From contig CADAKI010000001.1 of assembly GCA_902788485.1 (NCBI GenBank), forward strand, positions 114,226 to 178,225: 64,000 nucleotides of DNA, given 5' to 3'. Positions 1 through 28,761 of this stretch are shown here, piece by piece. This DNA is from an uncultured Pseudomonadota bacterium (GTDB lineage: Bacteria > Pseudomonadota > Alphaproteobacteria > Rs-D84). The position numbers and the translations under genes were made by a program. Position 1 is the stretch's first letter. Each line of letters starts with the position of its first letter. Below the pieces are notes generated by a model. The model did no database searches and was not told the origin of the DNA. It worked only from the letters and a program-made list of their open reading frames with translations.

Positions 1-840
1 TAAAATCAAAAACATAACATTTGATTCAACCTGTAATGCGCCAACAAACCCACGATTTAAATCACGCCAATCACGCACCACAAAACCATCCGGCAACAAC
101 CGTCCCAACGCATCACGCACCGTATTCGTATCATCGGCATTTTTCAAAAACAAATCTATATGCGTGACCGATTTTCCAATATTCAAATATTTCTGGGCCG
201 TCGCAAGATTCATAAATACATACCCCGAATCATATTCGTACATCCCCATAAAAAACGCGGTTTTTACCGGATACGACACAATTCGTGGCATCGAACCAAA
301 CGGCGTTGGTGTTGCCGCATTTGCCGACACCAACGATACATCCGTCCCCAACGACGCATTTAATGCACGCGACAAACTAGCCCCCATAACCAATTCGCCA
401 TCTTTTATTTCATCCAACGCCTTGCCATAAAAACGCGCCCCGTCCGATGTTTTTGAAATCAAATCAGACATATTTATTCCGCGAATCATCGCCCCAGAAT
501 TTTTGCCACCATGCGTCACCATCACCTGGCCTTCGGCAATCGGAACAATAGAAACGGTATTTGCCGCAACAATTTTATTTTGCCGCATTTTATCAATTAA
601 ATAATCATAATCAGAAATCGTGCCATCTTGGTGATACACAACAACATGTCCGTTCATACCAATAATGCGCCCCAACAACACATCATGAAAACCGCCCATA
701 ACAGACATCACAACAATCAGTGTCGCCACCCCCAACATAATTCCAATCAACGACACCCATGACACAACAGAACCAAAACCGCGCTTTTTCGCCCACAAAT
801 AACGATACGCAACCTTTTTTTCTAATTTTGAAAACAACAT
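1..840 (-). CDS. Lipoprotein-releasing ABC transporter permease LolC/E-like (FtsX/MacB family), N-terminal 280 aa; the gene runs off the window start
   Basis: Minus-strand reading frame is open from the ATG at 840 to position 1 (not in the ORF track because it has no stop). Translation MLFSKLEKKVAYRYLWAKKRGFGSVVSWVSLIGIMLGVATLIVVMSVMGGF... matches the LolC/LolE N-terminus, first TM and periplasmic domain. Confidence 0.8.
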   Translation of the reverse strand, partial: MLFSKLEKKVAYRYLWAKKRGFGSVVSWVSLIGIMLGVATLIVVMSVMGGFHDVLLGRIIGMNGHVVVYHQDGTISDYDYLIDKMRQNKIVAANTVSIVPIAEGQVMVTHGGKNSGAMIRGINMSDLISKTSDGARFYGKALDEIKDGELVMGASLSRALNASLGTDVSLVSANAATPTPFGSMPRIVSYPVKTAFFMGMYEYDSGYVFMNLATAQKYLNIGKSVTHIDLFLKNADDTNTVRDALGRLLPDGFVVRDWRDLNRGFVGALQVESNVMFLIL

Positions 841-857
841 ATCAAAACAACCCTTGT

Positions 858-2177
858 TTAATTATTCAAAAATTCCCGCAACGCATTTCCCGACAATCCA
901 ACATTAGAATTTACGCCCGCCGCATCTGAATCAACCACAGATATAATTCTGGGCGACATAAACACAACCAATTCTGCGAATGGACTGACCAATGTTTCCG
1001 GCGTTGTCACAAACGAGTGTGTTGGAATACCGATAATCACATAATTATCACCAACACTGGACGGGATATTAAACGATGTTAATTCGCCATATTTTGTTGT
1101 CAGAACGATTTTTGCATCAATCTTTTGATACCCACCGTAATCGCCATATTTTCCCGTGGCACCGACAACCAAATCTGTTTCCAATCTATCTTCTTTACTG
1201 CATTGACCGATATCAAATTTAGATTGCCATCCGTTTGGAATCGAAAAAGTTCCCTGGGAAATCAAAACAACATTTGATTGTTGTGCCAAAAATTCTTGTA
1301 ATGTTTTCGTGTTTATTTCCGGCCCAACAACCAACGCACGCCCAACAACACCCGGCACAGACATTTTTATATTTTGTTTTCCAAACGCCGGCAATAAATT
1401 CATCCAAATAATCGGGTTGTCTGTTTTTGGATACACGCGATACACATCCATATCCCATGCCAGCATATATTTTTTCGATGCGATATCCGCGATTATGCGC
1501 GACACTTCACGTTCGGTTTGCCAATCACCTTCGAATACAACGGTTTTATCCGACCAATTCACCAACAAATTCCGCACATCCGCGCCATGCATTGCATCCA
1601 ATAACGCCATAATAATCGATTGGTCTTTAGGCATCTTAATCATCCATTTTGCACGATGTTTCAAATGAATTTCCGCCGTCGTTTCATCATAAGAATAATA
1701 TGCACGCCCCATTTTAGAAATCAAATCAACCGTATCTGACAAAGTCCCTGACGCAACATCGCCCGATATTTTTTCAACCAACTGTTCATCCATAACAATC
1801 GCGACATCGGTGCCATCCAACAATTTATTTAACGCCGCCGCCACCGTCATATCTTTAAATTTATACCCCGACACAGACAATTCAGGCAACGGGTCCCCAA
1901 CCCCCAACCGCACAATTTCGATTTTTTCCGCCGGCACAACCGATACAACCGATTGATTATTCCAATCAACCGTGCACCGCATAGGCAATTCAACCGAAAA
2001 CCGTTGTGCTGTATCCGTCGTCAACGCCGCCTTTTTTGGAAAAATAGGCACAGATTTTTCATTTATCACACTGTTTTCAACAACCGTGATTGTATCATAT
2101 TGCGGAATGTTGTCATTTGTGTTTTGGCATGCCGCACACAAAACAACCATAACAAACCCAATTAAAATTTTTTTCAT
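858..2177 (-). CDS. Outer-membrane lipoprotein with a secretin-like C-terminal domain (type IVb pilus PilN/BfpB/TcpC-like)
   Basis: Start at the ATG at 2177, preceded by GGAGG. Signal peptide MKKILIGFVMVVLCAAC carries a lipobox Cys. C-terminus ...ETLVSPFAELVVFMSPRIIS resembles the secretin signature (..ELLVFITPRIV). Size 440 aa. Confidence 0.55.
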   Translation of the reverse strand: MKKILIGFVMVVLCAACQNTNDNIPQYDTITVVENSVINEKSVPIFPKKAALTTDTAQRFSVELPMRCTVDWNNQSVVSVVPAEKIEIVRLGVGDPLPELSVSGYKFKDMTVAAALNKLLDGTDVAIVMDEQLVEKISGDVASGTLSDTVDLISKMGRAYYSYDETTAEIHLKHRAKWMIKMPKDQSIIMALLDAMHGADVRNLLVNWSDKTVVFEGDWQTEREVSRIIADIASKKYMLAWDMDVYRVYPKTDNPIIWMNLLPAFGKQNIKMSVPGVVGRALVVGPEINTKTLQEFLAQQSNVVLISQGTFSIPNGWQSKFDIGQCSKEDRLETDLVVGATGKYGDYGGYQKIDAKIVLTTKYGELTSFNIPSSVGDNYVIIGIPTHSFVTTPETLVSPFAELVVFMSPRIISVVDSDAAGVNSNVGLSGNALREFLNN

Positions 2178-2208
2178 TTTGTGCCTCCTTCCTGTGGCTG
2201 TCATTTAA

Positions 2209-2529
2209 CTAAATATTCATCAATTTTTCAAATTCTTCCAATGTCATTTCGTAAATAGGCTTTTCCGTTGGCGTCACCAAACCTTTGACAGATTCAAATC
2301 GTTCTTCGAAAATTTTTATCACCCGCGCCACATCGGCCCCCACCGGACCGGCCTGTTGTAATCGACGACCATATTCAACAATGTATTCCAACACATCGGC
2401 AATAAAGAATCGACCAACATAGTTATCCATGTCGATACCGCCCTTTTGCACACATATAGCCGCCATTATTGCCAATGTCTGATTGTAAAAATTTGCCAAC
2501 TTGATAAAATTTTGAACTGTAATCGCCAT
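2209..2529 (-). CDS. Hypothetical 106-aa cytoplasmic protein, co-directional and immediately upstream of the secretin gene
   Basis: ORF with no recognisable motifs; 4-nt gap to the secretin gene. Confidence 0.4.
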   Translation of the reverse strand: MAITVQNFIKLANFYNQTLAIMAAICVQKGGIDMDNYVGRFFIADVLEYIVEYGRRLQQAGPVGADVARVIKIFEERFESVKGLVTPTEKPIYEMTLEEFEKLMNI

Positions 2530-2605: not shown

Positions 2606-2986
2606 ATGAAAATAAAACAAATTGCATTATTACTTGCTTTGACGGCATGTGCATCCGCCAACCGGGGCAATATTGATGACGCAACCATTTTGAATTGGGA
2701 AAACGACGCCGTCACAACCGAACAATTTGTTCGCGACCATAAATCATGCCTGGGAATCCGTTCCAATGATTACGCACCGCGTTCACGTATTGCACGATTA
2801 TTATTACCAAATCAAAACGACCAAATGCCGAATTGGGACGGCATATGGGTCACATTTCAATCAAATGAATACCGCGATGTCGGTCAACGCGCATTGATGT
2901 CTGTTCCCCGGAACAAGGCATCCAAAACCGTCGGTGCATATCGTCGTTGCATGTTGCGCCGTGGGTATTTATTGCGCGCGATGTAA
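2606..2986 (+). CDS. Hypothetical lipoprotein (126 aa)
   Basis: Signal peptide with lipobox MKIKQIALLLALTACAS. Confidence 0.5.
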   Translation: MKIKQIALLLALTACASANRGNIDDATILNWENDAVTTEQFVRDHKSCLGIRSNDYAPRSRIARLLLPNQNDQMPNWDGIWVTFQSNEYRDVGQRALMSVPRNKASKTVGAYRRCMLRRGYLLRAM

Positions 2987-3724: not shown

Positions 3725-5497
3725 ATGAATTTATCGGACTCTTGCTTTTTATGCCTTGATATCGGAACATCTTGCACCCGTGGTGTCGCACATCGTATTC
3801 GAAATGGGAAAATTGCAAAATCCGCAACCGCAATGTGCGACAATTTTAACCAACAATTCGCAATAAAATCTGTGATTGATAACTTGGAACACGAAATCGG
3901 CACCCATTTCGAAGACGCATACATCACCGGCAATTTTGGTAAATCTGAATTTTTACGCCCGCGCCAAAGCACATTGTGGAACAACGAACATAAAATCACA
4001 GAATCCGACATCCGTGTCCAAATTTCTAAAATAGAATTTCCAGATGGCTTTTCACCAATTCATATAATCCCATTACAATATGACACACCATCTGCACGCA
4101 AAATTGCAACGCCGATTGGTTATACCGACCATCAATTATTATCAACATTTGGCGTGATATGTTATGAAAACACCCGATTGAACGAAATTGTATCATTATT
4201 ACACAAGGCGCACATCCAATACAACGGCATGTTTGACCCGGGATATTTATTGGCACAAAACTTGCGCAAACCGGGTGAAACAATATTGTTGATTGACCTG
4301 GGGGCTGAATTTTCATCTATATCAATATGGAACAATCGTGGTGTGTTGTGGCACAAAAAATTACCGATTGGCATGTCCAATATAACAATGGATTTATCAA
4401 AATCATTAAACATCGATTTTGACGAGGCCGAAAGAATAAAACGCCAAACCGCAAATTTAATTCCACGCGCAATGGACCGTATGACGCCGGCCGATACCGC
4501 ATACGATTTCACCCGTGGCGATGTGAACGATATTGTTGTCCCAGATATTGTTGATATAATCGGACAAATTAAATCCGCATCCATGGACGCCGTATCAAAA
4601 TTATTACCCACCCGTATAATTGTCAGTGGTGGCGGCACACAAATTGACGGCGTTGTTGATTTCATAGGAAACGCATTTGCCATACCCGCCGAAAATCATC
4701 ATGCCGACGCAACAATAACCGCACTGTCTGATTATATATGGAACTCTGCGGCAAACGCCCGCGCGGCATACGCACAAAAAATGGCGCGTCATGAAAAATA
4801 CATAAACAAAATAAAAAAATTATTTACCACGCACCCCAAAAAGAAAAAGCCAAAATTTATACCAATCGCACCATCAACATTATGTTTTAATATGTATTCA
4901 CCTGCGACATATAAATTATTTGATGACGCGGGCATATCGACAATTCATGTTGATATAATGGACGGTTTTTATGTATCACGCGTGGCGGGTGGCATACATG
5001 AATTAAAAACAATTCGCGCAAACACACGCGCGCACCTGCATGTTCATTTAATGACCGAAAACCCGGCTGTATGGGCGGCCAACGCAATCCAGGCGGGCGC
5101 CGACACAATTATATTATCATTAAACACATCTGGGGTTCGGGCGGCTCTGCGCGGCATACGCGCAACCGGGCGCCGTGCCGGCGTTGCGATAAATCCCGAT
5201 ATTCCATTATCAACATTGGTGCCATTACTGCGCGATATTGACGAGGTTATGGTAATGGCGGTCCAACCGGGCGCCGCGGGTCAAGAATTCGACACATCTG
5301 TTCTGCAAAAAATTTTGGCCCTGGCCACAACACGCAAAAAACACGGATTAAAATATATTATATCTGTGGACGGCGGCATAAATGAAACAACCGCACAAAA
5401 ATGTTGGGACGCCGGCGCCGATTTATTGGTCAGTGGTTCTTATTTACAACATGCCCACGATTTTGCATTGGCTGTTCAAAGTTTATTAAAAAAATAA
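3725..5497 (+). CDS. ftsA: FtsA-like actin-family division protein (about 375 aa) fused in frame through a KKKKPK linker to a complete ribulose-phosphate 3-epimerase (Rpe) domain
   Basis: N-terminal part aligns with FtsA blocks (LCLDIGTS.., IIPLQYD, LLIDLGAEFSSISIW, IIVSGGGTQIDG). C-terminal 215 aa aligns with Rpe (IAPSTL..HVDIMDGFYV..HLMT..AVQPGAAGQEF..SVDGGI). No stop codon or obvious start separates them. Confidence 0.7.
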   Translation: MNLSDSCFLCLDIGTSCTRGVAHRIRNGKIAKSATAMCDNFNQQFAIKSVIDNLEHEIGTHFEDAYITGNFGKSEFLRPRQSTLWNNEHKITESDIRVQISKIEFPDGFSPIHIIPLQYDTPSARKIATPIGYTDHQLLSTFGVICYENTRLNEIVSLLHKAHIQYNGMFDPGYLLAQNLRKPGETILLIDLGAEFSSISIWNNRGVLWHKKLPIGMSNITMDLSKSLNIDFDEAERIKRQTANLIPRAMDRMTPADTAYDFTRGDVNDIVVPDIVDIIGQIKSASMDAVSKLLPTRIIVSGGGTQIDGVVDFIGNAFAIPAENHHADATITALSDYIWNSAANARAAYAQKMARHEKYINKIKKLFTTHPKKKKPKFIPIAPSTLCFNMYSPATYKLFDDAGISTIHVDIMDGFYVSRVAGGIHELKTIRANTRAHLHVHLMTENPAVWAANAIQAGADTIILSLNTSGVRAALRGIRATGRRAGVAINPDIPLSTLVPLLRDIDEVMVMAVQPGAAGQEFDTSVLQKILALATTRKKHGLKYIISVDGGINETTAQKCWDAGADLLVSGSYLQHAHDFALAVQSLLKK

Positions 5498-8039: not shown

Positions 8040-10514
8040 ATGAATATTAAATCACGGCACCGTCGCCGCCTGTTTTGGACAACCGTTGTATTATTGGGCA
8101 TGGCACTCATTGGATTGATATGTATTCCGCCATTGTTAAATTTGAATAAAATGCGCCCCGTATTACAGGAAAAATTACAAACCCAAACGGGCATGCCGGT
8201 AAAAATCAACGGCAATGTAAATTTCAGTTTACTTGGGTCTGGCACGATTGTTGCACACAATGTTGAAATTCAAAACGGCAAAATCGACACGGTTTCTTTT
8301 TCTGTGCCATTTAAACAGATTTTTGATTTAACCCACGCAACATTAAACCCTGGCATCAACATCAACAACGGAAACATAAAAATTTATGATTTGTTTCCTG
8401 GGGCGATAACAAACACAATAAATATATATAATACGAACCTGGATTTTATGAATCACGAATACAAAATTGTTCGTGGCACTTTATCAAACAATAAATTTAC
8501 CGGCCAAATTCGCACCCCTCAACATAAATACGATATAAATTACGACAATGGTGAATTTGTTATTATAAACAGTAACGACAACTTGCACATCCGCGGCACA
8601 TTATTTCCCGACGGTGGGGCTGCGGGCGAAATGTCAATCAGTACCCCCGACATAAACAAATGGTTTGAATTTGAAAATCCAAAAATCAACGAGCCCGTAT
8701 CATTATCAATGGAATTTAATTGGGATGGCGGATACGGATTTGATTTCACAAACATTGTTGCAAACAATTACACCGGCAACATAAAATTATTACCCAACGG
8801 ATATAAACACATAAACTTTTCATCCGAAAATGCAAAATTGGATTTATCTTTTATTGCACACGACAAAAGCATGTTAAACAACACGGATTTAACATTGGAT
8901 TTATCGGGTCAAATAAAATTCCAAGACAACACTTTTTCAACCGTAAAAATAAACGCATCTGGAAAAAACAACACATTGGAATTGAAACATGTTGTAATTG
9001 ACCACATTGAATTAACCGGCGGCACATATGATAACGACGGACTGCACAACACAAAATTACATATAAACAACATGGGTGAAAAATTTAACTGTAAATTTTC
9101 CGGCACACCACAAAAATGGGAATGTAAAAATTTTAACTATGGCGATATATCCGGCGAAATTACATCAGACAATGGCATATTCCATATCACCGCGACATCC
9201 ACGGGACCAATGCCAAAAATACAAACGATACGCAAATTAATATCACGCATTGGCGACAATGGCACCATTGATTTCACATTTTCTGATATGTCCGGAAACA
9301 TGGTTGTGACACCCAAACAGATATTACCAAAATTCAATTTTGCAAACAACACAACATTACGCGATTTAAATATCGACATAAAATTCTTGCCAGAATTTAT
9401 GTCAACAACACGCGGCACATATACATATAAAAACAACAAAAAAACATTTATTCCACAAAACAAACAATGGACATTAGAAATCGATGAAAACAAATTCGTA
9501 ATCACGGGTGTAAATTTCAAACAATGGTTGCCGGGTATGGATTTACAATTTTTGAACGACATGGCATACGCGGTATCTGGGACATTTAATAACGATACAA
9601 TCGGTGATTTAAACATAATGATTGGCGACAAAATACTATCCGGCACCGCGACGAAATCCGGCATAACATTGGACATCGATGTTTTGAACCTGGATAATTT
9701 TATCAGTCCGATATACCGTGAAAAATATTCCGAAGAAAAATTTTTAACCAATCATCCATTGGCGACATTGTTTGATTTACCAATAAACATTTCGTTATCT
9801 GCGAACACAATGATTTTAGAAAACACAAAATACAGAAATTTTGTATATTCGTTAAAACCCAACATCCAGGTATTTTCAATATCTGATGCCAGTCGCGGCA
9901 ATATGTTGACCATCATAGAAAAGAAAAAATTTGATTACGATATTTCTATTCAATTAAACAAATTCCAAGTGACGGGCGAATTGTTAAAATTCGACGCCCC
10001 ATTTAACATCCGCAATTCCACCATCACGGCCGAGGTTAAATTACACACATCGGGTCAAACCGCAAATGATTTGGTATATAATTTATCTGGCGATATTGAT
10101 GCGATATTGACAGGCGGCACAATATCCGGCATCGGGTTCGATGCGTTTTATGCCGCATCCGAAAATTTAACAATATTAAATGCCGAATATGCATTGGGCG
10201 CCGCATTAGAATCCGGCAAAACACGATTAAAGAAATTAAAAATTACCGGCACATATAAAAACGGCAATTTTGAAACAACAAAACCATTTACGATATCAAT
10301 GGCACATGTCGATGGTGTTGGCGCATTATTTATCAACAATCGTGTTATGACCGGAACATTTGAATTTGTCTTGCGTGGCACGGCACCAAAACCGGCATCG
10401 ATTGAAATGACACTAACCGAATCCGGTCGTCGCCAATATTCAATCACAGATATCATAAACAACCTGGACATTGGATACATGCGTGCATTTACCAAAACAA
10501 ATAATAAATTCTGA
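8040..10514 (+). CDS. AsmA-family outer-membrane biogenesis protein
   Basis: 824 aa; N-terminal membrane anchor RRRLFWTTVVLLGMALIGL, then a long repetitive beta-rich periplasmic region typical of the AsmA family. Confidence 0.6.
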   Translation: MNIKSRHRRRLFWTTVVLLGMALIGLICIPPLLNLNKMRPVLQEKLQTQTGMPVKINGNVNFSLLGSGTIVAHNVEIQNGKIDTVSFSVPFKQIFDLTHATLNPGININNGNIKIYDLFPGAITNTINIYNTNLDFMNHEYKIVRGTLSNNKFTGQIRTPQHKYDINYDNGEFVIINSNDNLHIRGTLFPDGGAAGEMSISTPDINKWFEFENPKINEPVSLSMEFNWDGGYGFDFTNIVANNYTGNIKLLPNGYKHINFSSENAKLDLSFIAHDKSMLNNTDLTLDLSGQIKFQDNTFSTVKINASGKNNTLELKHVVIDHIELTGGTYDNDGLHNTKLHINNMGEKFNCKFSGTPQKWECKNFNYGDISGEITSDNGIFHITATSTGPMPKIQTIRKLISRIGDNGTIDFTFSDMSGNMVVTPKQILPKFNFANNTTLRDLNIDIKFLPEFMSTTRGTYTYKNNKKTFIPQNKQWTLEIDENKFVITGVNFKQWLPGMDLQFLNDMAYAVSGTFNNDTIGDLNIMIGDKILSGTATKSGITLDIDVLNLDNFISPIYREKYSEEKFLTNHPLATLFDLPINISLSANTMILENTKYRNFVYSLKPNIQVFSISDASRGNMLTIIEKKKFDYDISIQLNKFQVTGELLKFDAPFNIRNSTITAEVKLHTSGQTANDLVYNLSGDIDAILTGGTISGIGFDAFYAASENLTILNAEYALGAALESGKTRLKKLKITGTYKNGNFETTKPFTISMAHVDGVGALFINNRVMTGTFEFVLRGTAPKPASIEMTLTESGRRQYSITDIINNLDIGYMRAFTKTNNKF

Positions 10515-21194: not shown

Positions 21195-21222
21195 AAAAAA
21201 AATCCCCAAACGGGGATTTTTA
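21195..21222. terminator. Bidirectional terminator hairpin atccccaaacggggat flanked by A8 and T5
   Basis: Exact reverse complement of the hairpin at 22601-22626. Confidence 0.65.
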
Positions 21223-22491
21223 TATTGATATCGCCTCGCCGGCTTCGCGTTGTCGTGCCAACAATGCCGCCTTGCGTTTTGCTTCTTTTTCTTGGGCGCG
21301 TTTTAAATTTGCATTTGCGTTCTCAATGGCTTCCCTCATTTTAACCTTAACCTCACCTTTTTTAAACACACCGGCCTTACCAACTTCTTGTTCGCCAATT
21401 TCATACGCCGCAATCACCTCTAATGCACTTTGCAGCATTGAATTTATCGATGCCACCGCCGCGCGTTCATCATCATATTTTCTCAACAACCGGGCGCGCA
21501 ATTCTTTTTCGTGTTCGTAATTATCACGATATTGGTCACGCGATTGTGTTAATTTGAAATTATCCGATAATAATTTTTCATTTGCATTTATCAAATCTAT
21601 ATTTTGTTGTTCCAAAGTATTTTCATAATTTGTCACATATTGTGCATCACCCGACCCAACAACATTATCAAAATCATATTTTTCTTTGGCGATTTCTTGC
21701 CATTGATTTAACAATTTATAAAATTCTTTATTTACTTCTTTATCTTTTATTGCCTTACTCAATTCTGGACTTAAATCACGCCCATCCAATACAGTTCTAA
21801 TAAGAGACCCTGGTTTACTTAATATAACGCCAACATTATCTGTATTTGGCACATCTTTGTTTAATTCCACATCCAAATCTTCATCGGTTTTTGCAAATAC
21901 ATCATTTATAATTTTCAACGCATTGTCTTGTGTTTCTGCAAAATAAATCATTTCCAAAATATCGTCTGTTGTTGCATTTTGATTATTTGCCAACATTGTC
22001 GCAATATCTTTATAAACAGACATCCGTTTTTTCGGTATTTGCAATCCATATTTTTCTGCACACGGACGTTTATAATCAGATGTTGATTTCAAAATTTTTA
22101 ATGCATCATAAACCAAATCTTTATCTTTAAATTTATTCAAACGATTTAAAAACATTTGCGAATACGATGTATTGTCATACCCCCGCGAATCACCATCGTT
22201 TTTCGGATAAAAAACCTGCTCTGCGACAAATTTTACCGTATTTTTCACATCATCCGTGGCACTTGGATTTTTATGCAATTCAAACATAAATCCTAACACA
22301 TCCTCCACAGATTTTGATTTAATTTTTCTGTGCACTTGTAAAAATTCTTGAAAATTTGCATCTGGATTAAAACCCGTTTCAACCGCTTCCTGCCAAAATC
22401 CTTTATAATCTTCGTAATACAAATGCCACTCTTTACGCAAATCTATATATGCACGAACAAATGTTTCCAAATCAAATATAAAATCCGCCAT
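21220..22491 (-). CDS. Hypothetical 423-aa cytoplasmic protein with a C-terminal coiled coil (possible secreted effector or cargo)
   Basis: No signal peptide; C-terminal K/E/R-rich heptad region; no recognisable family. Confidence 0.45.
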   Translation of the reverse strand: MADFIFDLETFVRAYIDLRKEWHLYYEDYKGFWQEAVETGFNPDANFQEFLQVHRKIKSKSVEDVLGFMFELHKNPSATDDVKNTVKFVAEQVFYPKNDGDSRGYDNTSYSQMFLNRLNKFKDKDLVYDALKILKSTSDYKRPCAEKYGLQIPKKRMSVYKDIATMLANNQNATTDDILEMIYFAETQDNALKIINDVFAKTDEDLDVELNKDVPNTDNVGVILSKPGSLIRTVLDGRDLSPELSKAIKDKEVNKEFYKLLNQWQEIAKEKYDFDNVVGSGDAQYVTNYENTLEQQNIDLINANEKLLSDNFKLTQSRDQYRDNYEHEKELRARLLRKYDDERAAVASINSMLQSALEVIAAYEIGEQEVGKAGVFKKGEVKVKMREAIENANANLKRAQEKEAKRKAALLARQREAGEAISI

Positions 22492-22663: not shown

Positions 22664-23734
22664 TCAACCCAACATCATTGTAATTTGGTCTTGCATTTGA
22701 AATGTTGCCAACACAACCCACGCGATAATCACCGACACCAATAAAATGCCCACACTGTTTAACGCACTTGATAACGATTCCATTTTATTCACAGAATTTT
22801 GCAAATAATCCCGTGCAACATTTGAAATATTTAAACTAAAATCGTTCATATCAGAATAAATTGTTAAATCGCCAATCAATTCATTGTTTGGAAAATTGCG
22901 TCCCGTATTCGCCAACGCGACACCCAAATTATCACCATTTGCAATATATCGCAACGCCGATTCCAAAATATCACGCAAATACCTGTTTGAATTGTCCGCC
23001 AATATACGCATCGCATCCGGCACAGACACCCCGGCCGCAACAAAAGCCGACAAAGACATCATCCACCCAACCGACACATGAATTTTATAAATATTCCACG
23101 GCGCAATATTATCAAATTTTGTGCGCAACCATCCCGTCCAATTTGGCAATGATAACCACACCAATAAACACAATCCAACAAAAACACCTGCAATAATATG
23201 CCAATATTTTATTGAAAATTCTGACACCAAAATCAATAAATTTGCCGCCCCCGTCCATTGAACATTTGGTCCGGCAACCGATGCCAACGGCGGCACCAAA
23301 TAAACACCAACCATAATAATAATTGCAAATGTCAAAACCAACAAAAACAACGGATACGCGATTGCATTACGCATCGCCCGTTTAATTTTATTTATACCAA
23401 CAACAACCGTTTCCAAATTTTCCAACGAAACGATTAAATCTGACACATTTGCAGATGTCAATAACAGCGTCTCGTTTTCTGGCAACCATCCACGCGTTGC
23501 ATCTGCAAAAGACAAACCTTGTTCCAAACCTTTTTGCCATTGACGCATGGCGATTGCATAGGGTTCATCGGGCTTTTTACCATTATGCGATTCAATTTGT
23601 TCAATCCGCCCCAACGCATCCATCAAAGAAAAATTATTACGCAACAAAGACGCCAATTTGCGTATCAATGCCAAACGACGTTCTGTATTCCATTTGAATA
23701 CCATTTTTGCATATAATAATTCTAAATTTTCCAT
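22664..23734 (-). CDS. GspF/PilC-family inner-membrane platform protein (type IVb PilR/BfpE/TcpE-like)
   Basis: 356 aa; cytoplasmic N-domain, three hydrophobic segments and T2SS-F-like architecture; immediately downstream of the GspE-family ATPase. Confidence 0.6.
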   Translation of the reverse strand: MENLELLYAKMVFKWNTERRLALIRKLASLLRNNFSLMDALGRIEQIESHNGKKPDEPYAIAMRQWQKGLEQGLSFADATRGWLPENETLLLTSANVSDLIVSLENLETVVVGINKIKRAMRNAIAYPLFLLVLTFAIIIMVGVYLVPPLASVAGPNVQWTGAANLLILVSEFSIKYWHIIAGVFVGLCLLVWLSLPNWTGWLRTKFDNIAPWNIYKIHVSVGWMMSLSAFVAAGVSVPDAMRILADNSNRYLRDILESALRYIANGDNLGVALANTGRNFPNNELIGDLTIYSDMNDFSLNISNVARDYLQNSVNKMESLSSALNSVGILLVSVIIAWVVLATFQMQDQITMMLG

Positions 23735-23739
23735 TTTAT

Positions 23740-25374
23740 TTAATATTCCCCTGGCCTATCCAGTAAACCAACCCATCGTTCTAATTCATCAACACCAATA
23801 ATACCTTTTAACATCAATTCCGCCGCAGATTCTTTCAATGTGCGACCATCCATTTCTTCCAACCAATATTTCACCGCCAAATCGGTATTGCCCGAAATCG
23901 CTAGTCGTAAAAATTCACTGTTTGTGATAATGATTTCGCCGGCCTTGATACGCCCCAATGTACCCGAACCATTACATTCACTGCATCCCGGACCACGGAT
24001 AAATGTTTGCTTTAATCCGATTTCACCAAATGCATCCATAACACGCGAATATGCCGGATGTTCCGGATGATTTGATAACGCCTCGCGACAATGTGGACAT
24101 AATTTTTTAAACAAACGCATTGAAACCAAACCACGCATCAATGTTTCTTCTTTTAACTTGAACGCTTCGACCCCCATATCCAACAAACGCGTCAACGCCG
24201 CCATCGCAGAATTCGCATGTAATGTCGTCCACACATTATGCCCCGACAACGCACCACGCACCGTCAATTGTGCCGCGGCCAGTGTTCGAATTTCCCCAAC
24301 CATAATTGTATCCGGGTCACTGCGTAATGCGGCGGCCAACGCCTCGGTATATTTTTCATCGCGTTGTTCTTCGTTCATCGCATTGACGACCGGCATTTGA
24401 TGCGCACCAAAAATTTTTTGTTCGACCGGATTTTCCACCGTAATCATATTGATTTCGTAATTGCGTTCTTTCAACATCATTGACATATTTCGAACCAATG
24501 TTGTTGATTTACCTGAACTGGTTGGACCGGCAACAATCACCAACCCAGTTGGATACGCACGCAGCCGTTCCAACAATTTACGTTCATATTCGCCAAATTC
24601 TTGTTCGGTTTTTATACCTTCGGATGGGTTATCATATAATAATCGCATAACGACATAACGCGTTCCATATGCGATTGGATTAAATTGCATACGAATACTG
24701 GTGACACCATCTGGTAAAAACAAATCACGCGTTCCACGCAATGGGGTGCGACCATCTTTTTGTGCCGATTGATATTCATTTTGTGCATAGTTTGCATTTG
24801 AAATATCCGCCGACGCAAACGCCGCACGCACAAACGATTCACCCCACCCGGCATTATATTCCAATACGGGTTGCATACTGCCATCGATACGAAAATAAAT
24901 TGTTGTTTGGTCAGAAACCTCGATATGCACATCCGACACCTTTTGTGCCGCCGCCCGTGCGATAATATCGACAAAATCTTTCTGCATTTGGTTATCGAAA
25001 TCCGCATGGTTATGAACACCACCACCCAAACGCTCTTCGTATGTTTTATAAATCGCCGAAACCAAACCCAAATCAGAATAAAACGGTGTTTTCATCACCA
25101 TATTGCGTTCACGCAGCAAATCCAAAAACGCCAACACGCGCCCATCATATTTATGCGTGCGCGATATAATAATTTCACCACCTGAAAAATATGCGACCAA
25201 ACTTTGGACATCACGCGACAATTGCAACCGCGCACCCGTCGCCGTCAACAACCGATTACCATTAGAATACAAATAATCCACAATTTCTTTGATTTCTGCA
25301 TTTTCCATTGCCACCGGCACAGACGGTGTTTTTGAAAAATTTGCCTCGTCAAAATTTTTATTATCTTTACTCAT
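23740..25374 (-). CDS. GspE/PilB-family secretion ATPase (type IVb PilQ(R64)/BfpD/TcpT-like)
   Basis: 544 aa; Walker A VIVAGPTSSGKSTTL, Asp and His boxes (TLHANSAMAALTRLLDMGV), C-terminal tetracysteine CPHC...CSEC zinc motif. Larger than VirB11 and carries the Cys motif VirB11 lacks. Confidence 0.8.
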   Translation of the reverse strand: MSKDNKNFDEANFSKTPSVPVAMENAEIKEIVDYLYSNGNRLLTATGARLQLSRDVQSLVAYFSGGEIIISRTHKYDGRVLAFLDLLRERNMVMKTPFYSDLGLVSAIYKTYEERLGGGVHNHADFDNQMQKDFVDIIARAAAQKVSDVHIEVSDQTTIYFRIDGSMQPVLEYNAGWGESFVRAAFASADISNANYAQNEYQSAQKDGRTPLRGTRDLFLPDGVTSIRMQFNPIAYGTRYVVMRLLYDNPSEGIKTEQEFGEYERKLLERLRAYPTGLVIVAGPTSSGKSTTLVRNMSMMLKERNYEINMITVENPVEQKIFGAHQMPVVNAMNEEQRDEKYTEALAAALRSDPDTIMVGEIRTLAAAQLTVRGALSGHNVWTTLHANSAMAALTRLLDMGVEAFKLKEETLMRGLVSMRLFKKLCPHCREALSNHPEHPAYSRVMDAFGEIGLKQTFIRGPGCSECNGSGTLGRIKAGEIIITNSEFLRLAISGNTDLAVKYWLEEMDGRTLKESAAELMLKGIIGVDELERWVGLLDRPGEY

Positions 25375-25378
25375 GTTA

Positions 25379-26107
25379 TTACCGACTGGATATATTTAAA
25401 TTTTGTGTTTCGCCATCTTTGCTGAACACAACACCATCTTCCAAAGATATCGATTTCACAGTAAACCCGTTGATTTTTTTACCAACACTAACGCGTTTTG
25501 TTTGACCTGTTTCCAAATCAGACAATGTTGCCTGTAATTGATTTCCGGCCCCCATAACATTTACCAATTTATACATTGACGCAATATCTTCATCGTATTC
25601 TTCGCGTTGCTTTTTTTGTGCCACAGGTTTCTTTTTTGGTGTTGCCGCCGCCACATCTGATGTATCACCCGATTCTGCGGCCTCGGTTGCCGCCGCAATC
25701 GCGCGTTTTTCTTGTTCTATTTTCGCGGCCTCGGCCTCTAGGCGCGCTTTTTCATTTTGCAAAATTTGTTGTTCTTGCTCGGCGCGTCCCGACAGTGTAT
25801 CCATTTCCATTTGCAGTTTAATTTTTTCCGCCGCCAATCTGTCCAAATCTAAATCCAGTTGTGCGCGTTCTTTTTCTAACTCCATCAAAACTTTTTCTTG
25901 TTCCAAATCCGTAATTTGTTGAAACACCGTTCCATCAACATTATATGCACCAACCGCCATTGCAGACACATCATCCGCGACATCTGATTCCACATCCTCG
26001 ACGAATTCATCGGTTAAAATTTCATCATCAACCGCCCACGCATTTGGCACAACCAAAAACGCAAACAAAACGAACAACACACCAAATAATTTATTTTTAT
26101 TTTGCAT
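25379..26107 (-). CDS. Periplasmic coiled-coil protein with a PilP-like C-terminal beta domain (BfpU/PilP-type assembly component)
   Basis: Signal peptide, long coiled coil, C-terminal YKLVNVMGAGNQLQATL..VGKKINGFTVKSISLEDGVVFSKDG resembling the PilP secretin-binding domain. Confidence 0.5.
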   Translation of the reverse strand: MQNKNKLFGVLFVLFAFLVVPNAWAVDDEILTDEFVEDVESDVADDVSAMAVGAYNVDGTVFQQITDLEQEKVLMELEKERAQLDLDLDRLAAEKIKLQMEMDTLSGRAEQEQQILQNEKARLEAEAAKIEQEKRAIAAATEAAESGDTSDVAAATPKKKPVAQKKQREEYDEDIASMYKLVNVMGAGNQLQATLSDLETGQTKRVSVGKKINGFTVKSISLEDGVVFSKDGETQNLNISSR

Positions 26108-27452
26108 AGATTATAACCTCATAGTTCCAATTTCGTGTAACCACATTCCACGCACAACGCGTGATATAAAAACCACCAAAATCTTCAAACATTTTTGTAA
26201 ATTGCATTGGCAATAATTTTGAAGACACTTCGACCTCGACAACATTTAATTGTGCGACATCAACCCCATTTGTAATTGTATCAACAACAATTTCTGTTTT
26301 TACATCCATATTCATTGATTGAAACAAACTGACCACATTTCTTTCAACGGTTGCGGCATCACGCGCATCCATTGACGCCGCACGCGCAACATCCGGCAAA
26401 GACACCGACACACTCAACATGTTATCGTTTATTTCTGTGATTGTTGCACCCGGCAGAAAATCCGCCGCCATATCATAAAAAGTATCCAACGAACCGAATT
26501 TTCTGTTAAATTCCGCGGTGGCAGTTGTTTCATCACACGACACATTTGATTGCACCCACCCAGTAATCGGTTGCATTAAAAATCCGACCGCCTGATAACA
26601 TTGTTTTGCGCGTTGTTCCGGCACCGGCAAAGAATTATATGGCAACACCAACGGTTGAACATCGGGTTGTTTTTTGATATCAAACTGTTTGTCCAACTCT
26701 TTATTTTTTTCATCAATCTGGCGATTGTATTCATCAATCACAGATTTATCAATCACGGCCGGCCTTTTTGCCGTCATTTTATGAATTGGTTCATTAAACA
26801 ATAAATAAATTCCCGCAAAAAAAGCACACAATAAAACGACAGAAAACAATCTGGCGCGCCACAAATTTATTGCACGCAATTTATATTTTGCTTTGCGTGG
26901 CAAAACACTTGCCAAATCTTTTTCCATCGCACGCGGTATTGCCCATGCGTTTGGCGCAATAAACGCCGACCAATCCGGTATTTTTGAAAACCGTGCATAT
27001 TCGGCGCGCGCATCTGATTCATTATTAAACAGTTTATCCGCCAAAATAATTCCATTACGCACCGCCAACAAATAATATTTTTTATCAACAAAAAACACCG
27101 CCAAAAACGAAGAATATTCACTAAACGCGTCAACAATTTCGGCGGCGGCGGACGGCATACCCGACGCATATTGACGTGCCCGCGGTGCCAACCCAATCAT
27201 AGACCGATATTCAACATACAATTTCGCACGGGTATTTGAATTACGTGCCAACACACCGGCATATCCGCGTGATGTATAACCAACCGCCACCGGTTGCCAA
27301 AACAATCCGGCCGCAAAACGCCGCTTGTTCACGCGAAAAACTTCACTGAAAGTATTATCACGATTTTTCGAAAAATTTCCAAATATCCAACCCATTGAAA
27401 AATTCATCTCTCCTGTTTTATAATTATAACAAAAAAATACAATCTTTGGCAA
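26097..27452 (-). CDS. Bitopic inner-membrane assembly protein (R64 PilO / BfpC / TcpR-like)
   Basis: 451 aa; about 190-aa cytoplasmic domain, single TM LFSVVLLCAFFAGIYLLF, about 230-aa periplasmic domain; its place in the operon matches pilO/bfpC. Confidence 0.45.
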   Translation of the reverse strand: MPKIVFFCYNYKTGEMNFSMGWIFGNFSKNRDNTFSEVFRVNKRRFAAGLFWQPVAVGYTSRGYAGVLARNSNTRAKLYVEYRSMIGLAPRARQYASGMPSAAAEIVDAFSEYSSFLAVFFVDKKYYLLAVRNGIILADKLFNNESDARAEYARFSKIPDWSAFIAPNAWAIPRAMEKDLASVLPRKAKYKLRAINLWRARLFSVVLLCAFFAGIYLLFNEPIHKMTAKRPAVIDKSVIDEYNRQIDEKNKELDKQFDIKKQPDVQPLVLPYNSLPVPEQRAKQCYQAVGFLMQPITGWVQSNVSCDETTATAEFNRKFGSLDTFYDMAADFLPGATITEINDNMLSVSVSLPDVARAASMDARDAATVERNVVSLFQSMNMDVKTEIVVDTITNGVDVAQLNVVEVEVSSKLLPMQFTKMFEDFGGFYITRCAWNVVTRNWNYEVIIYAK

Positions 27453-27483
27453 ACAGATAATAATGCCACCACCAAAAATTTAA

Positions 27484-27813
27484 TTATTTTTTATTGCCAC
27501 AATCATAAACCCGTGCCGTCATTATATATTTATATTCCGGCCCAAACACCGCCCCATCAATCTTAACGGCATCATCGCGTTCCAACCAAAAATAATTTCC
27601 CGATTTGTTTTGTGCCACAATACGATTTTTTAAATACCGAACGGCATCATCATGGGAATACAAAGACACATCAACATCCATCTTATATAAATACATACAA
27701 TTTGTTGGTTGTGTATCTAATTGTATCAACGAATCCGCACCTGCATCAACCTTTACGGTATTTGTGCACGCCGAAAGACACAACAATAATAAACCAAATA
27801 TTTTTTTCATCAT
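27484..27813 (-). CDS. Small lipoprotein (109 aa), first gene of the pilus-like operon
   Basis: MMKKIFGLLLLCLSAC lipobox; 15 nt downstream of the lpxC stop. Confidence 0.5.
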   Translation of the reverse strand: MMKKIFGLLLLCLSACTNTVKVDAGADSLIQLDTQPTNCMYLYKMDVDVSLYSHDDAVRYLKNRIVAQNKSGNYFWLERDDAVKIDGAVFGPEYKYIMTARVYDCGNKK

Positions 27814-27828
27814 CCCCCCACTTTTTTA

Positions 27829-28761
27829 TTATATAATTTCATAATTTTCCGGGTCAGAAAATAGTTTCCGCAACACCAAATTATTCAACGCATGACTGCC
27901 CTTAAACGACACCAAATCACCAATAATATAACCACCAGATGTGAACATATCACCCAACGCGTCAATCAATTTATGCCGCACGAATTCATCCCGCCAATAA
28001 ATATTATTTAACACACCATCACCCGCCGCATTTACCGCAATAACATTATGCTCGTTCGCACCAAAACCCATACCATGCTTTTTTAATGTTTCCCACTCTG
28101 AAATTTTGCCAAATGTTCGTGCACGCGCAACATCATGCAAAAACACATCGCGCGATTTTTTTGTTCCGTCAAACGAATAAGAAAATGTTTGCGACCCAAT
28201 AATTTTTTCCGGGTATTCTAATGTAGCCATAACATTTAACCCACGCCCGTTATTTGGTGATAATTTAACAAAACCATTTGTTTTCCGCCCGGCGATTTTA
28301 TTTATTATCCAAAATTTCAACCTTTCAAAAAATGGGATATTTTTCCGTGCATCGCGTGACGACACAACAATTTCGCGTTTAACAATAATTCGTTTTGGTT
28401 TGGCACCAATCACACCAACCGATAAAAATTTTTCTAAAAATTTATATGCACTGCCGTCCAGTATCGGGACCTCGGGCCCATTTATTTCAATAATCGCACT
28501 GTCCACACCAACAATCATCAACGCCGCCATTAAATGTTCGATTGTTTGCACATGTGCACCCGACATATCACCAATGGTTGTATTGCGAAATTTTGTTTCA
28601 CCAACATTAGAATAAATTGCCGGTATATCAAAATTTTTATCTAAATCAACACGATGAAAAATAATCCCCGGCACATCACTTGGTTTTATCACTATCCGCA
28701 CAGGTGCGCCTTTATGAATCCCCACACCACGAAATTCAATTTTTTTCTTGAAAGTCGCCAT
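27829..28761 (-). CDS. lpxC: UDP-3-O-acyl-N-acetylglucosamine deacetylase
   Basis: 310 aa; FRGVGIHKGAPV, HRVDL and IEHLMAAL motifs. Confidence 0.9.
   Translation of the reverse strand: MATFKKKIEFRGVGIHKGAPVRIVIKPSDVPGIIFHRVDLDKNFDIPAIYSNVGETKFRNTTIGDMSGAHVQTIEHLMAALMIVGVDSAIIEINGPEVPILDGSAYKFLEKFLSVGVIGAKPKRIIVKREIVVSSRDARKNIPFFERLKFWIINKIAGRKTNGFVKLSPNNGRGLNVMATLEYPEKIIGSQTFSYSFDGTKKSRDVFLHDVARARTFGKISEWETLKKHGMGFGANEHNVIAVNAAGDGVLNNIYWRDEFVRHKLIDALGDMFTSGGYIIGDLVSFKGSHALNNLVLRKLFSDPENYEII

Follow-up and report, generated by a model that had tools for sequence, protein, structure and literature searches.

The 64,000-nucleotide stretch of DNA analysed here (the window) carries, at 858-2177 on the minus strand, a gene for a secretin-like lipoprotein, and we found that this protein belongs to a conserved family that is homologous to secretins and from which both gate loops of the secretin channel are missing. 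An earlier note on this DNA had described it as an orphan lipoprotein secretin of the type IVb kind. That description holds insofar as the protein is a lipoprotein homologous to secretins, with BfpB as its closest solved relative; it does not hold for a standard secretin, because the gates are deleted. With regard to its role, we consider it an even call that the protein forms a lipid-anchored, ungated outer-membrane ring of the secretin superfamily, of BfpB/PilN/MshL-type descent, which would most likely be the exit for the filament of a PilO-PilP-ATPase-platform cluster located elsewhere in the window.

A lipoprotein homologous to secretins

Counted from its first ATG, the open reading frame (ORF) at 858-2204 on the minus strand encodes 448 amino acids. 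We favour the ATG at 2177-2175 as the likely start of the gene because the sequence AGGAGG lies 6 nt before it and because the resulting 439 amino acids equal the length of most homologues; the ORF itself is real, as the earlier note had it, although its count of 440 amino acids is one more than this start yields. Residues are numbered throughout on the 440-residue query (858-2180), and a count based on the Met is lower by one. The gene and the encoded protein have the following features.

858-2177, minus strand: secretin-like lipoprotein gene, 439 amino acids plus stop (stop codon 860-858); the longest ORF extends to 2204
2184-2189, minus strand: AGGAGG ribosome-binding site, 6 nt before the ATG at 2177, read from the DNA
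2127-2177, minus strand: signal peptide and lipobox (..VVLCAAC), with Cys18 as the predicted acylation site
1947-2126, minus strand: linker from the lipid anchor to N0, residues 19-78, of which residues 21-38 are disordered
1656-1946, minus strand: N0-like domain, residues 79-175, with a weak STN match
1470-1655, minus strand: N3-like domain, residues 176-237
933-1469, minus strand: reduced secretin domain, residues 238-416, with outer strand 1, lip hairpin, helix and six further strands
1176-1205, minus strand: Gate 1 stump QCSKEDRLET, 10 residues, with the invariant Cys327 (codon 1202-1200)
1089-1094, minus strand: Gate 2 stump KY, 2 residues

The N-terminus, MKKILIGFVMVVLCAAC, is a signal peptide whose last residue is Cys. 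Consistent with the lipobox proposed earlier, this Cys is kept in all 30 close homologues. The strict, PROSITE-style lipobox rule holds for 24 of 35 distant family members, and the window copy departs from it solely through a Cys at position -3. The C-terminal strand that had been likened to the secretin signature (..FAELVVFMSPRIIS) is present as described.

The earlier note had taken the lack of a significant secretin-domain match as grounds for giving up the assignment, and formally such a match is lacking: the Pfam Secretin model (PF00263) gave no match at E<=1 for the window protein and matched none of the 35 family members. At the same threshold there was no match to NCBIfam, including TIGR02520 (PilN), and TIGR02519 (MshL) was likewise unmatched. 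PHROGs gave no match, a phmmer search of the PDB with the protein found nothing, and a profile of the 35 family members found no secretin in the PDB. The sole Pfam signal was a sub-threshold match to STN (E 0.003).

Searching the full library of 1.84 billion representatives yielded just 135 clusters, and the weak tail of this search consisted of genuine secretins, 25 of 27 of which carried PF00263, aligned to query residues ~100-337. When the profile of the secretin-like family (A2) was compared by hhalign with the profile of these canonical relatives (A3), the probability was 100% and the E-value 3.3e-45 over residues 9-416; with pIV as the master the E-value was 1e-31, and with the C-terminal half of BfpB it was 1.4e-19. 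Further, BLASTP gave an E-value of 5e-12 to a plasmid secretin that is positive for PF00263. Among solved structures, the best sequence match of the canonical relatives was BfpB (E 3.9e-39), and these relatives score on both the TIGR02520 (PilN) and the TIGR02519 (MshL) models. Overall, the profile comparisons make a solid case that the secretin-like protein is homologous to bona fide secretins over its N domains and its C-terminal domain. Because the best plasmid hit, from Methylibium, occupies the slot that PilO has in the window, the secretin-like ORF was considered as a possible PilO paralogue; this candidate was rejected, as the hit carries PF00263 and the secretin-like ORF shows no similarity to the window PilO.

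The predicted structure points the same way. An AlphaFold model built on A2 had a pLDDT of 87.5 and a pTM of 0.78, and a Foldseek search of the PDB with this model returned full-length secretin chains as its top 25 matches (E 8e-10 to 1e-5) and secretin N-terminal domains at ranks 26-30 (E up to 1e-3). The best fold match was BfpB (9u5s_A, E 7.7e-10), followed by PilQ, InvG, GspD and pIV. A non-secretin fold, which had also been named as an outcome that would speak against a secretin, was not seen. AlphaFold secondary structure and hhalign gave the layout as lipobox, ~60-residue linker, N0, N3 and secretin domain, with no N1/N2 or S domain. In the linker, residues 43-73 hardly vary among members of the genus, and they include the invariant Cys69 (codon 1976-1974). 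In the monomer model, strands 238-251, 271-276/281-285, 302-322, 338-347, 352-362, 365-375, 379-386 and 403-416, the eight that would build the outer and inner walls, map onto the strands of pIV, and the lip-plus-helix region is of similar size (~50 residues, compared with 55 in pIV) and contains the invariant Trp259.

Missing gate loops and comparison with known secretins

In the solved secretin structures of type II and type III secretion systems, type IV pili and phage, it is Gate 1 and Gate 2 that shut the channel (PMC12531336, PMC8563730). As a ruler for these loops we used pIV of phage M13/f1, in a mature numbering that reproduces residues G267, G297, D321, N335, E185 and R337 of PMC8563730, where Gate 2 is defined as residues 321-334. 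The two proteins correspond as follows.

Hinge 1: ISVG267 in pIV, FDIG325 in the secretin-like protein (hhalign with pIV as master)
Gate 1 tip: residues 276-294 in pIV, a 19-residue gap in the secretin-like protein
Hinge 2: G297 in pIV, D336 in the secretin-like protein
Gate 2: residues 321-334 in pIV, a 14-residue gap in the secretin-like protein
Loop before the last strand, with the GVPFLSKIPLIGLLF motif: 34 residues in pIV, 16 residues in the secretin-like protein (hhalign)
Last strand: STLYVLVKATIV in pIV, AELVVFMSPRII in the secretin-like protein

Segment lengths were also counted between the same alignment columns in 35 diverse family members and in the canonical relatives, with the following results (in residues).

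Gate 1: family 8-10; canonical median 30; pIV 29; BfpB 29
Gate 2: family 0-3; canonical median 21; pIV 14; BfpB 25
Last loop: family 4-17; canonical median 30; pIV 33; BfpB 29
Hinge 1 to C-terminus: family 75-94; canonical median 138; pIV 135; BfpB 142

The short Gate 1, Gate 2 and last loop hold in 35 of 35 family members. Compared with normal secretins, ~55 residues are missing overall, and AlphaFold places tight turns at both gate stumps while the flanking strands are retained. The secretin models miss the family because it has lost both gate loops together with the loop motif that is most conserved in secretin domains. Judged from alignment and model, the family appears to retain the parts of a secretin that build the wall and face the membrane and to be without the parts that close the channel, which is solid as far as the gate deletions are concerned. 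No description of a gate-less secretin was found in the searchable literature, which is weak negative evidence.

Two further features of the family bear on its architecture. Cys69 and Cys327 are invariant as a pair in 35 of 35 members, Cys327 being located two residues past hinge 1, and their invariance suggests a disulfide by which the Gate 1 stump would be bound to the N-terminal linker. In addition, R/K248 (27 of 35 members) and E/D366 (33 of 35) fall at the same positions as the residues of the wall-to-wall salt bridge E185-R337 in pIV and possibly constitute a swapped version of it.

A second secretin-like subfamily with short gates was seen at L002 8770-9903 (Erythrobacter aureus plasmid NZ_CP031358, 334348-335481) and L090 3702-4919 (P0233). 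Its members share 40% identity with each other, are related to the Enterousia family at an hhalign probability of 98% and keep a Cys at the Gate 1 stump; each is encoded right after a protein of 1230-1304 amino acids without a Pfam family.

The secretin-like protein shares with BfpB of the bundle-forming type IVb pilus of enteropathogenic Escherichia coli (PDB 9U5S, PMC12531336), the layout of which is LG-N0-N3-secretin, an N-terminal Cys that is acylated (predicted here), a linker before N0, the order N0-N3-secretin without N1/N2, and the lack of both an S domain and a pilotin. It differs in that BfpB has a full central gate (Gate 1 of 29 and Gate 2 of 25 residues, compared with 10 and 2), is recognised by PF00263, is a product of the bfp operon and binds BfpG; no partner resembling BfpG/TcpQ was found for the secretin-like protein, and the Cys69/Cys327 pair and the linkage to lolCE are specific to its family. 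Similarly, pIV of filamentous phage f1/M13 (PDB 7OFH, PMC8563730) has the same minimal N0-N3-secretin arrangement, a short lip and no S domain, but both gates are present in pIV whereas the wild-type secretin-like protein is without either. Small deletions in Gate 2 of pIV result in leaky, non-functional channels (PMC8563730).

R64 PilN (TIGR02520) and MshL (TIGR02519) are also lipoprotein secretins, and R64-type PilO and PilP are present in the window; however, pilN normally lies directly upstream of pilO, and in the window this slot holds the genes for a 109-amino acid lipoprotein and lpxC. The 'liposecretin' HxcQ of Pseudomonas aeruginosa is self-piloting, as it depends on its own lipid anchor and on the Lol system instead of on a pilotin. 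Unlike the secretin-like protein, HxcQ serves type II secretion, has a secretin domain with normal gates and is encoded in the operon of its secretion system. From sequence and model, the secretin-like protein would work most like a self-piloting lipoprotein secretin such as BfpB or PilN; by the defining tests of the BfpB and PilN families, namely their hidden Markov models, the gate loops and the operon position, it falls outside both.

Genomic context of the secretin-like gene and the pilus cluster

The genes and intervals to which the secretin-like gene has to be related are the following.

1-840, minus strand: 5' part of lolCE (lipoprotein-releasing ATP-binding cassette permease), 280 codons, continuing past the window edge
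841-857, minus strand: gap of 17 nt between the secretin-like gene and lolCE
2209-2529, minus strand: orf106, 106 amino acids, a predicted three-helix bundle without a signal peptide
22664-27813, minus strand: R64-type type IVb cluster without a secretin, comprising a 109-amino acid lipoprotein, PilO, PilP, ATPase and platform

The identity of lolCE was established over the 280 codons within the window by TIGR02212 (E 1.5e-60) and MacB_PCD. The spacing given earlier is correct, as 17 nt separate the stop codon of the secretin-like gene from the ATG of the co-directional lolCE at 840, and the gene for 106 amino acids precedes as described. No terminator-like site was seen in the 17-nt gap and a promoter scan around the secretin-like gene and its neighbours gave results at chance level; the arrangement suggests that the gene is probably co-transcribed with lolCE.

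The closest loci are found in metagenome-assembled genomes named Candidatus Enterousia or uncultured Alphaproteobacteria. Enterousia belongs to the order Rs-D84, gut bacteria with genomes of ~0.75-1.0 Mb (PMC12306168). A scan of the species-genome collection with a narrow alignment gave 339 matched stretches and returned Enterousia only; the synteny and identity counts rest on 80 species-level loci. The order orf106, secretin-like gene, lolCE was present in 80 of 80 Enterousia species loci, and in three lineages at 35-39% identity (L083-L085) lolCE and lolD directly follow the secretin-like gene, with overlapping start and stop in two of the three. Because the position beside lolCE is kept across the 80 species and in these relatives, it is ancient and fixed and not the product of a recent split. 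The earlier view of an orphaned, split-off secretin was therefore right in that the gene is unlinked from the ATPase and platform cluster, but misleading in that its place beside lolCE is fixed and the family has conserved neighbours of its own.

In the distant members L086-L088 and L092-L094 the lolCE slot is taken by other genes. Four distant lineages have a homologous bitopic membrane protein in this slot (L086 4952-5809, L088 2678-3226, L093 1636-2397 and L094 11348-12337); the N-terminal part of this protein is variable or rich in Pro, it has a single transmembrane helix, and its C-terminal domain contains an RCG...C motif. The gene immediately upstream was a relative of orf106 in every lineage examined; in distant relatives the secretin-like gene is preceded by genes for longer acidic proteins (147-514 amino acids, no signal peptide), whose C-terminal domain is homologous to orf106. 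Further upstream, five lineages encode a double-HTH_3 protein of ~330-350 amino acids. For orf106 itself there was no Pfam, NCBIfam or PHROGs family, and its AlphaFold model found no PDB match below E 1. In L092 (10001-11725, P0131, 574 amino acids) an orf106-like segment of ~145 residues lies in frame before the lipoprotein signal peptide (lipobox 153-163), which makes this gene either an orf106/secretin-like fusion or one with a mis-called start.

The database search yielded 1228 homologues of the secretin-like protein. No homologue among the matches listed has a Pfam domain, and the few source names given for the family are all 'hypothetical protein'. Median amino acid identity over the 80 species-level genomes was 74% for the secretin-like protein, compared with 78% for lolCE, 53% for FtsQ and 57% for the FtsA-like protein; identity of the secretin-like protein ranged from 72 to 91% across the 80 species, and its frame is intact in more than 1200 sequences. 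With this number of homologues and an identity above that of FtsQ and the FtsA-like protein, the secretin-like gene is clearly functional and under selection.

The PilO-to-platform part of the pilus cluster spans 22664-27452. PilO was identified by PF06864 (above cut-off), PilP by TIGR03021 (37 bits, cut-off 34.65), the ATPase as T2SSE (PF00437) and the platform as T2SSF (PF00482), and upstream of the cluster, where pilN would be, lies lpxC and not a secretin gene. By these assignments the PilO-P-Q-R cluster is to be read as an R64-type type IVb set lacking pilN. The secretin-like gene is outside the pilus operon (pilN-pilO-pilP-pilQ-pilR or equivalent), 20 kb from PilO-P-Q-R, and the canonical secretins nearest to it are encoded inside pilus clusters, in the gene order secretin, small protein, T2SSE, T2SSF (Methylibium plasmid RPME01; P0204).

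Several other genes of the window were recorded. The 109-amino acid lipoprotein (27484-27813, minus strand) carries the lipobox LSAC, takes the R64 pilL/M/N slot directly upstream of PilO and has no Pfam/NCBIfam family; immediately after the platform gene, 21220-22491 (minus strand) encodes an acidic, coiled-coil-looking protein of 423 amino acids with no signal peptide and no family. Outer-membrane biogenesis genes (AsmA-family, lpxC, lpxK and DUF374 acyltransferase-like) occur at 8040-10514 (plus strand) and 27829-30441 (minus strand), and the window is rich in such genes near both the secretin-like gene and the pilus cluster. At 33684-36107 (minus strand) there is a VirB4/CagE_TrbE_VirB-like ATPase of 807 amino acids (PF03135, E 4.5e-11), followed by two ORFs without a family (33071-33691 and 32419-33129); together these three may be what remains of a type IV secretion system, the genome being ~0.9 Mb in size. 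Between orf106 and ftsQ, 2606-2986 (plus strand) encodes, in divergent orientation, a putative lipoprotein of 126 amino acids with an LTAC lipobox and no family, which is 68-97% conserved in 79 of 80 related loci. After ftsQ, an ORF of 590 amino acids (3725-5497, plus strand) has, from its translation alone, an FtsA-like N-terminal and a ribulose-phosphate-3-epimerase-like C-terminal part, and its full length is conserved in 68 related loci.

Role of the protein and competing explanations

We propose that the secretin-like protein would be made as a prolipoprotein, exported and, given its lipobox, acylated. LolCE and LolD, whose genes in synteny with it would be transcribed together with it, could then sort it to the outer membrane, where the retained wall strands would drive its oligomerisation into a secretin-type ring without the usual gate. 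In Enterousia, we give an evenly balanced chance to the last step, in which this ring would act as a channel and as the outer-membrane exit for the PilO-P-Q-R machine; we infer this role because the pilus cluster has no secretin of its own and because the ancestry of the protein lies among pilus secretins.

A number of results weigh against such a pilus-exit ring. All secretin sequence models tried (Pfam, NCBIfam and PDB searches) miss the protein, and the global TM-scores of its model to solved secretins are low (0.15-0.25), so that the domain arrangement of the monomer model differs from that in assembled rings. PilO, P, Q and R were found within 10 kb in 0 of 80 Enterousia loci, and there was no pilus gene within 10 kb in most distant loci. 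No credible prepilin emerged in the 64 kb of the window when all its ORFs above a minimum length of 40-50 amino acids were scanned twice with pilin-signal patterns, and a prepilin peptidase was not found there either. Leakage across the outer membrane would be expected from a pore without gates, and a Cys69/Cys327 bond that ties the N-terminal linker to what is left of Gate 1 is difficult to reconcile with the geometry of BfpB. Lastly, the family has conserved neighbours of its own (the orf106-type partner and the HTH_3 protein and, in distant lineages, the bitopic membrane protein), a hint that it may be a module in its own right.

This hint leads to the alternative that we regard as possible, if doubtful: a secretin-derived lipoprotein that operates not with the pilus cluster but in a module of its own, consisting of an HTH_3 regulator, one or more orf106-type partners and either the bitopic membrane protein or LolCE/D, and that might provide a permanent pore in the outer membrane for uptake or export, or might serve lipoprotein and envelope biogenesis. 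The constancy of the orf106-type partner in every lineage examined, the HTH_3 protein in five lineages, the bitopic membrane protein after the gene in four distant lineages and lolCE-lolD in Enterousia and three others all argue for such a module, as do the absence of adjacent pil genes anywhere and a conservation of the gene like that of lolCE and above that of FtsQ/FtsA. Rs-D84 genomes are, moreover, reported to be without standard sugar, amino-acid and peptide transporters (PMC12306168). However, there is no known mechanism by which a cytoplasmic three-helix protein that lacks a signal peptide would be coupled to a ring in the outer membrane, the fold matches of orf106 are uninformative, the canonical relatives closest to the family are encoded within pilus clusters, and the pilus cluster of Enterousia would then have no outer-membrane conduit.

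The data make the remaining explanations unlikely. The earlier note had assumed an ordinary gated type IVb secretin of the PilN/BfpB type, merely too divergent for Pfam, with which the lipobox, the N0-N3-secretin order, the C-terminal strand motif and BfpB as the best structural match would all agree; we consider it highly improbable, because with 75-94 residues from hinge 1 to the C-terminus (canonical median 138) too few remain for the gate loops to form, and the gaps fall cleanly and exactly at Gate 1 and Gate 2, where AlphaFold predicts tight turns. We accord an equally slim chance to an origin from a mobile element or a filamentous phage, as a pIV-like export channel that was domesticated or still resides in the element. 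Although pIV is among the fold matches, a related short-gate subfamily is encoded on the Erythrobacter plasmid as well as on a contig that carries UvrD/HerA-like genes, and an Xre-type HTH gene lies nearby in relatives, the Enterousia gene sits among housekeeping genes (lolCE, ftsQ/A, uvrB and tsaE-like) at an identical position in 80 species, no integrase, repeats or phage genes were seen, and PHROGs gave no match. The least probable explanation is a decaying secretin relic without a present function: the loss of the hallmark loops, the reduced-genome host and the separation from the pilus genes would fit decay, but the intact frame in more than 1200 sequences and the identity of 72-91% across 80 species do not, nor do the fixed stump lengths and the invariance of Cys69/Cys327 in members down to 20% identity.

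The family has so far lain in a blind spot of annotation, as Pfam, NCBIfam and PDB sequence searches miss it entirely. It also offers a first lead on the surface machinery of Candidatus Enterousia, an abundant uncultured gut lineage of the order Rs-D84; a genome study (PMC12306168) reports type IV pili only for the lineage UBA9783 and describes none for Rs-D84. Overall, the homology and the gate deletions of the family are solid, and a family from which both gates have been cleanly removed, and whose conservation over at least 80 species is as strong as that of LolCE, leaves two possibilities, namely that the double-walled barrel can be sealed in another way or that the host bacteria tolerate or exploit a wide-open outer-membrane pore. 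For closure of another kind, the nearly invariant N-terminal segment, which the putative Cys69-Cys327 disulfide would tie to the Gate 1 stump, is a candidate. We advance as a tentative, less probable possibility that this widespread gate-less secretin family is a conduit of a new type, always open or closed otherwise, that works with its own partners (orf106-type, HTH_3 and LolCE/D) rather than as a mere pilus exit. If true, such a conduit could, for example, serve gut alphaproteobacteria with reduced genomes and few transporters as a large pore for uptake or export.

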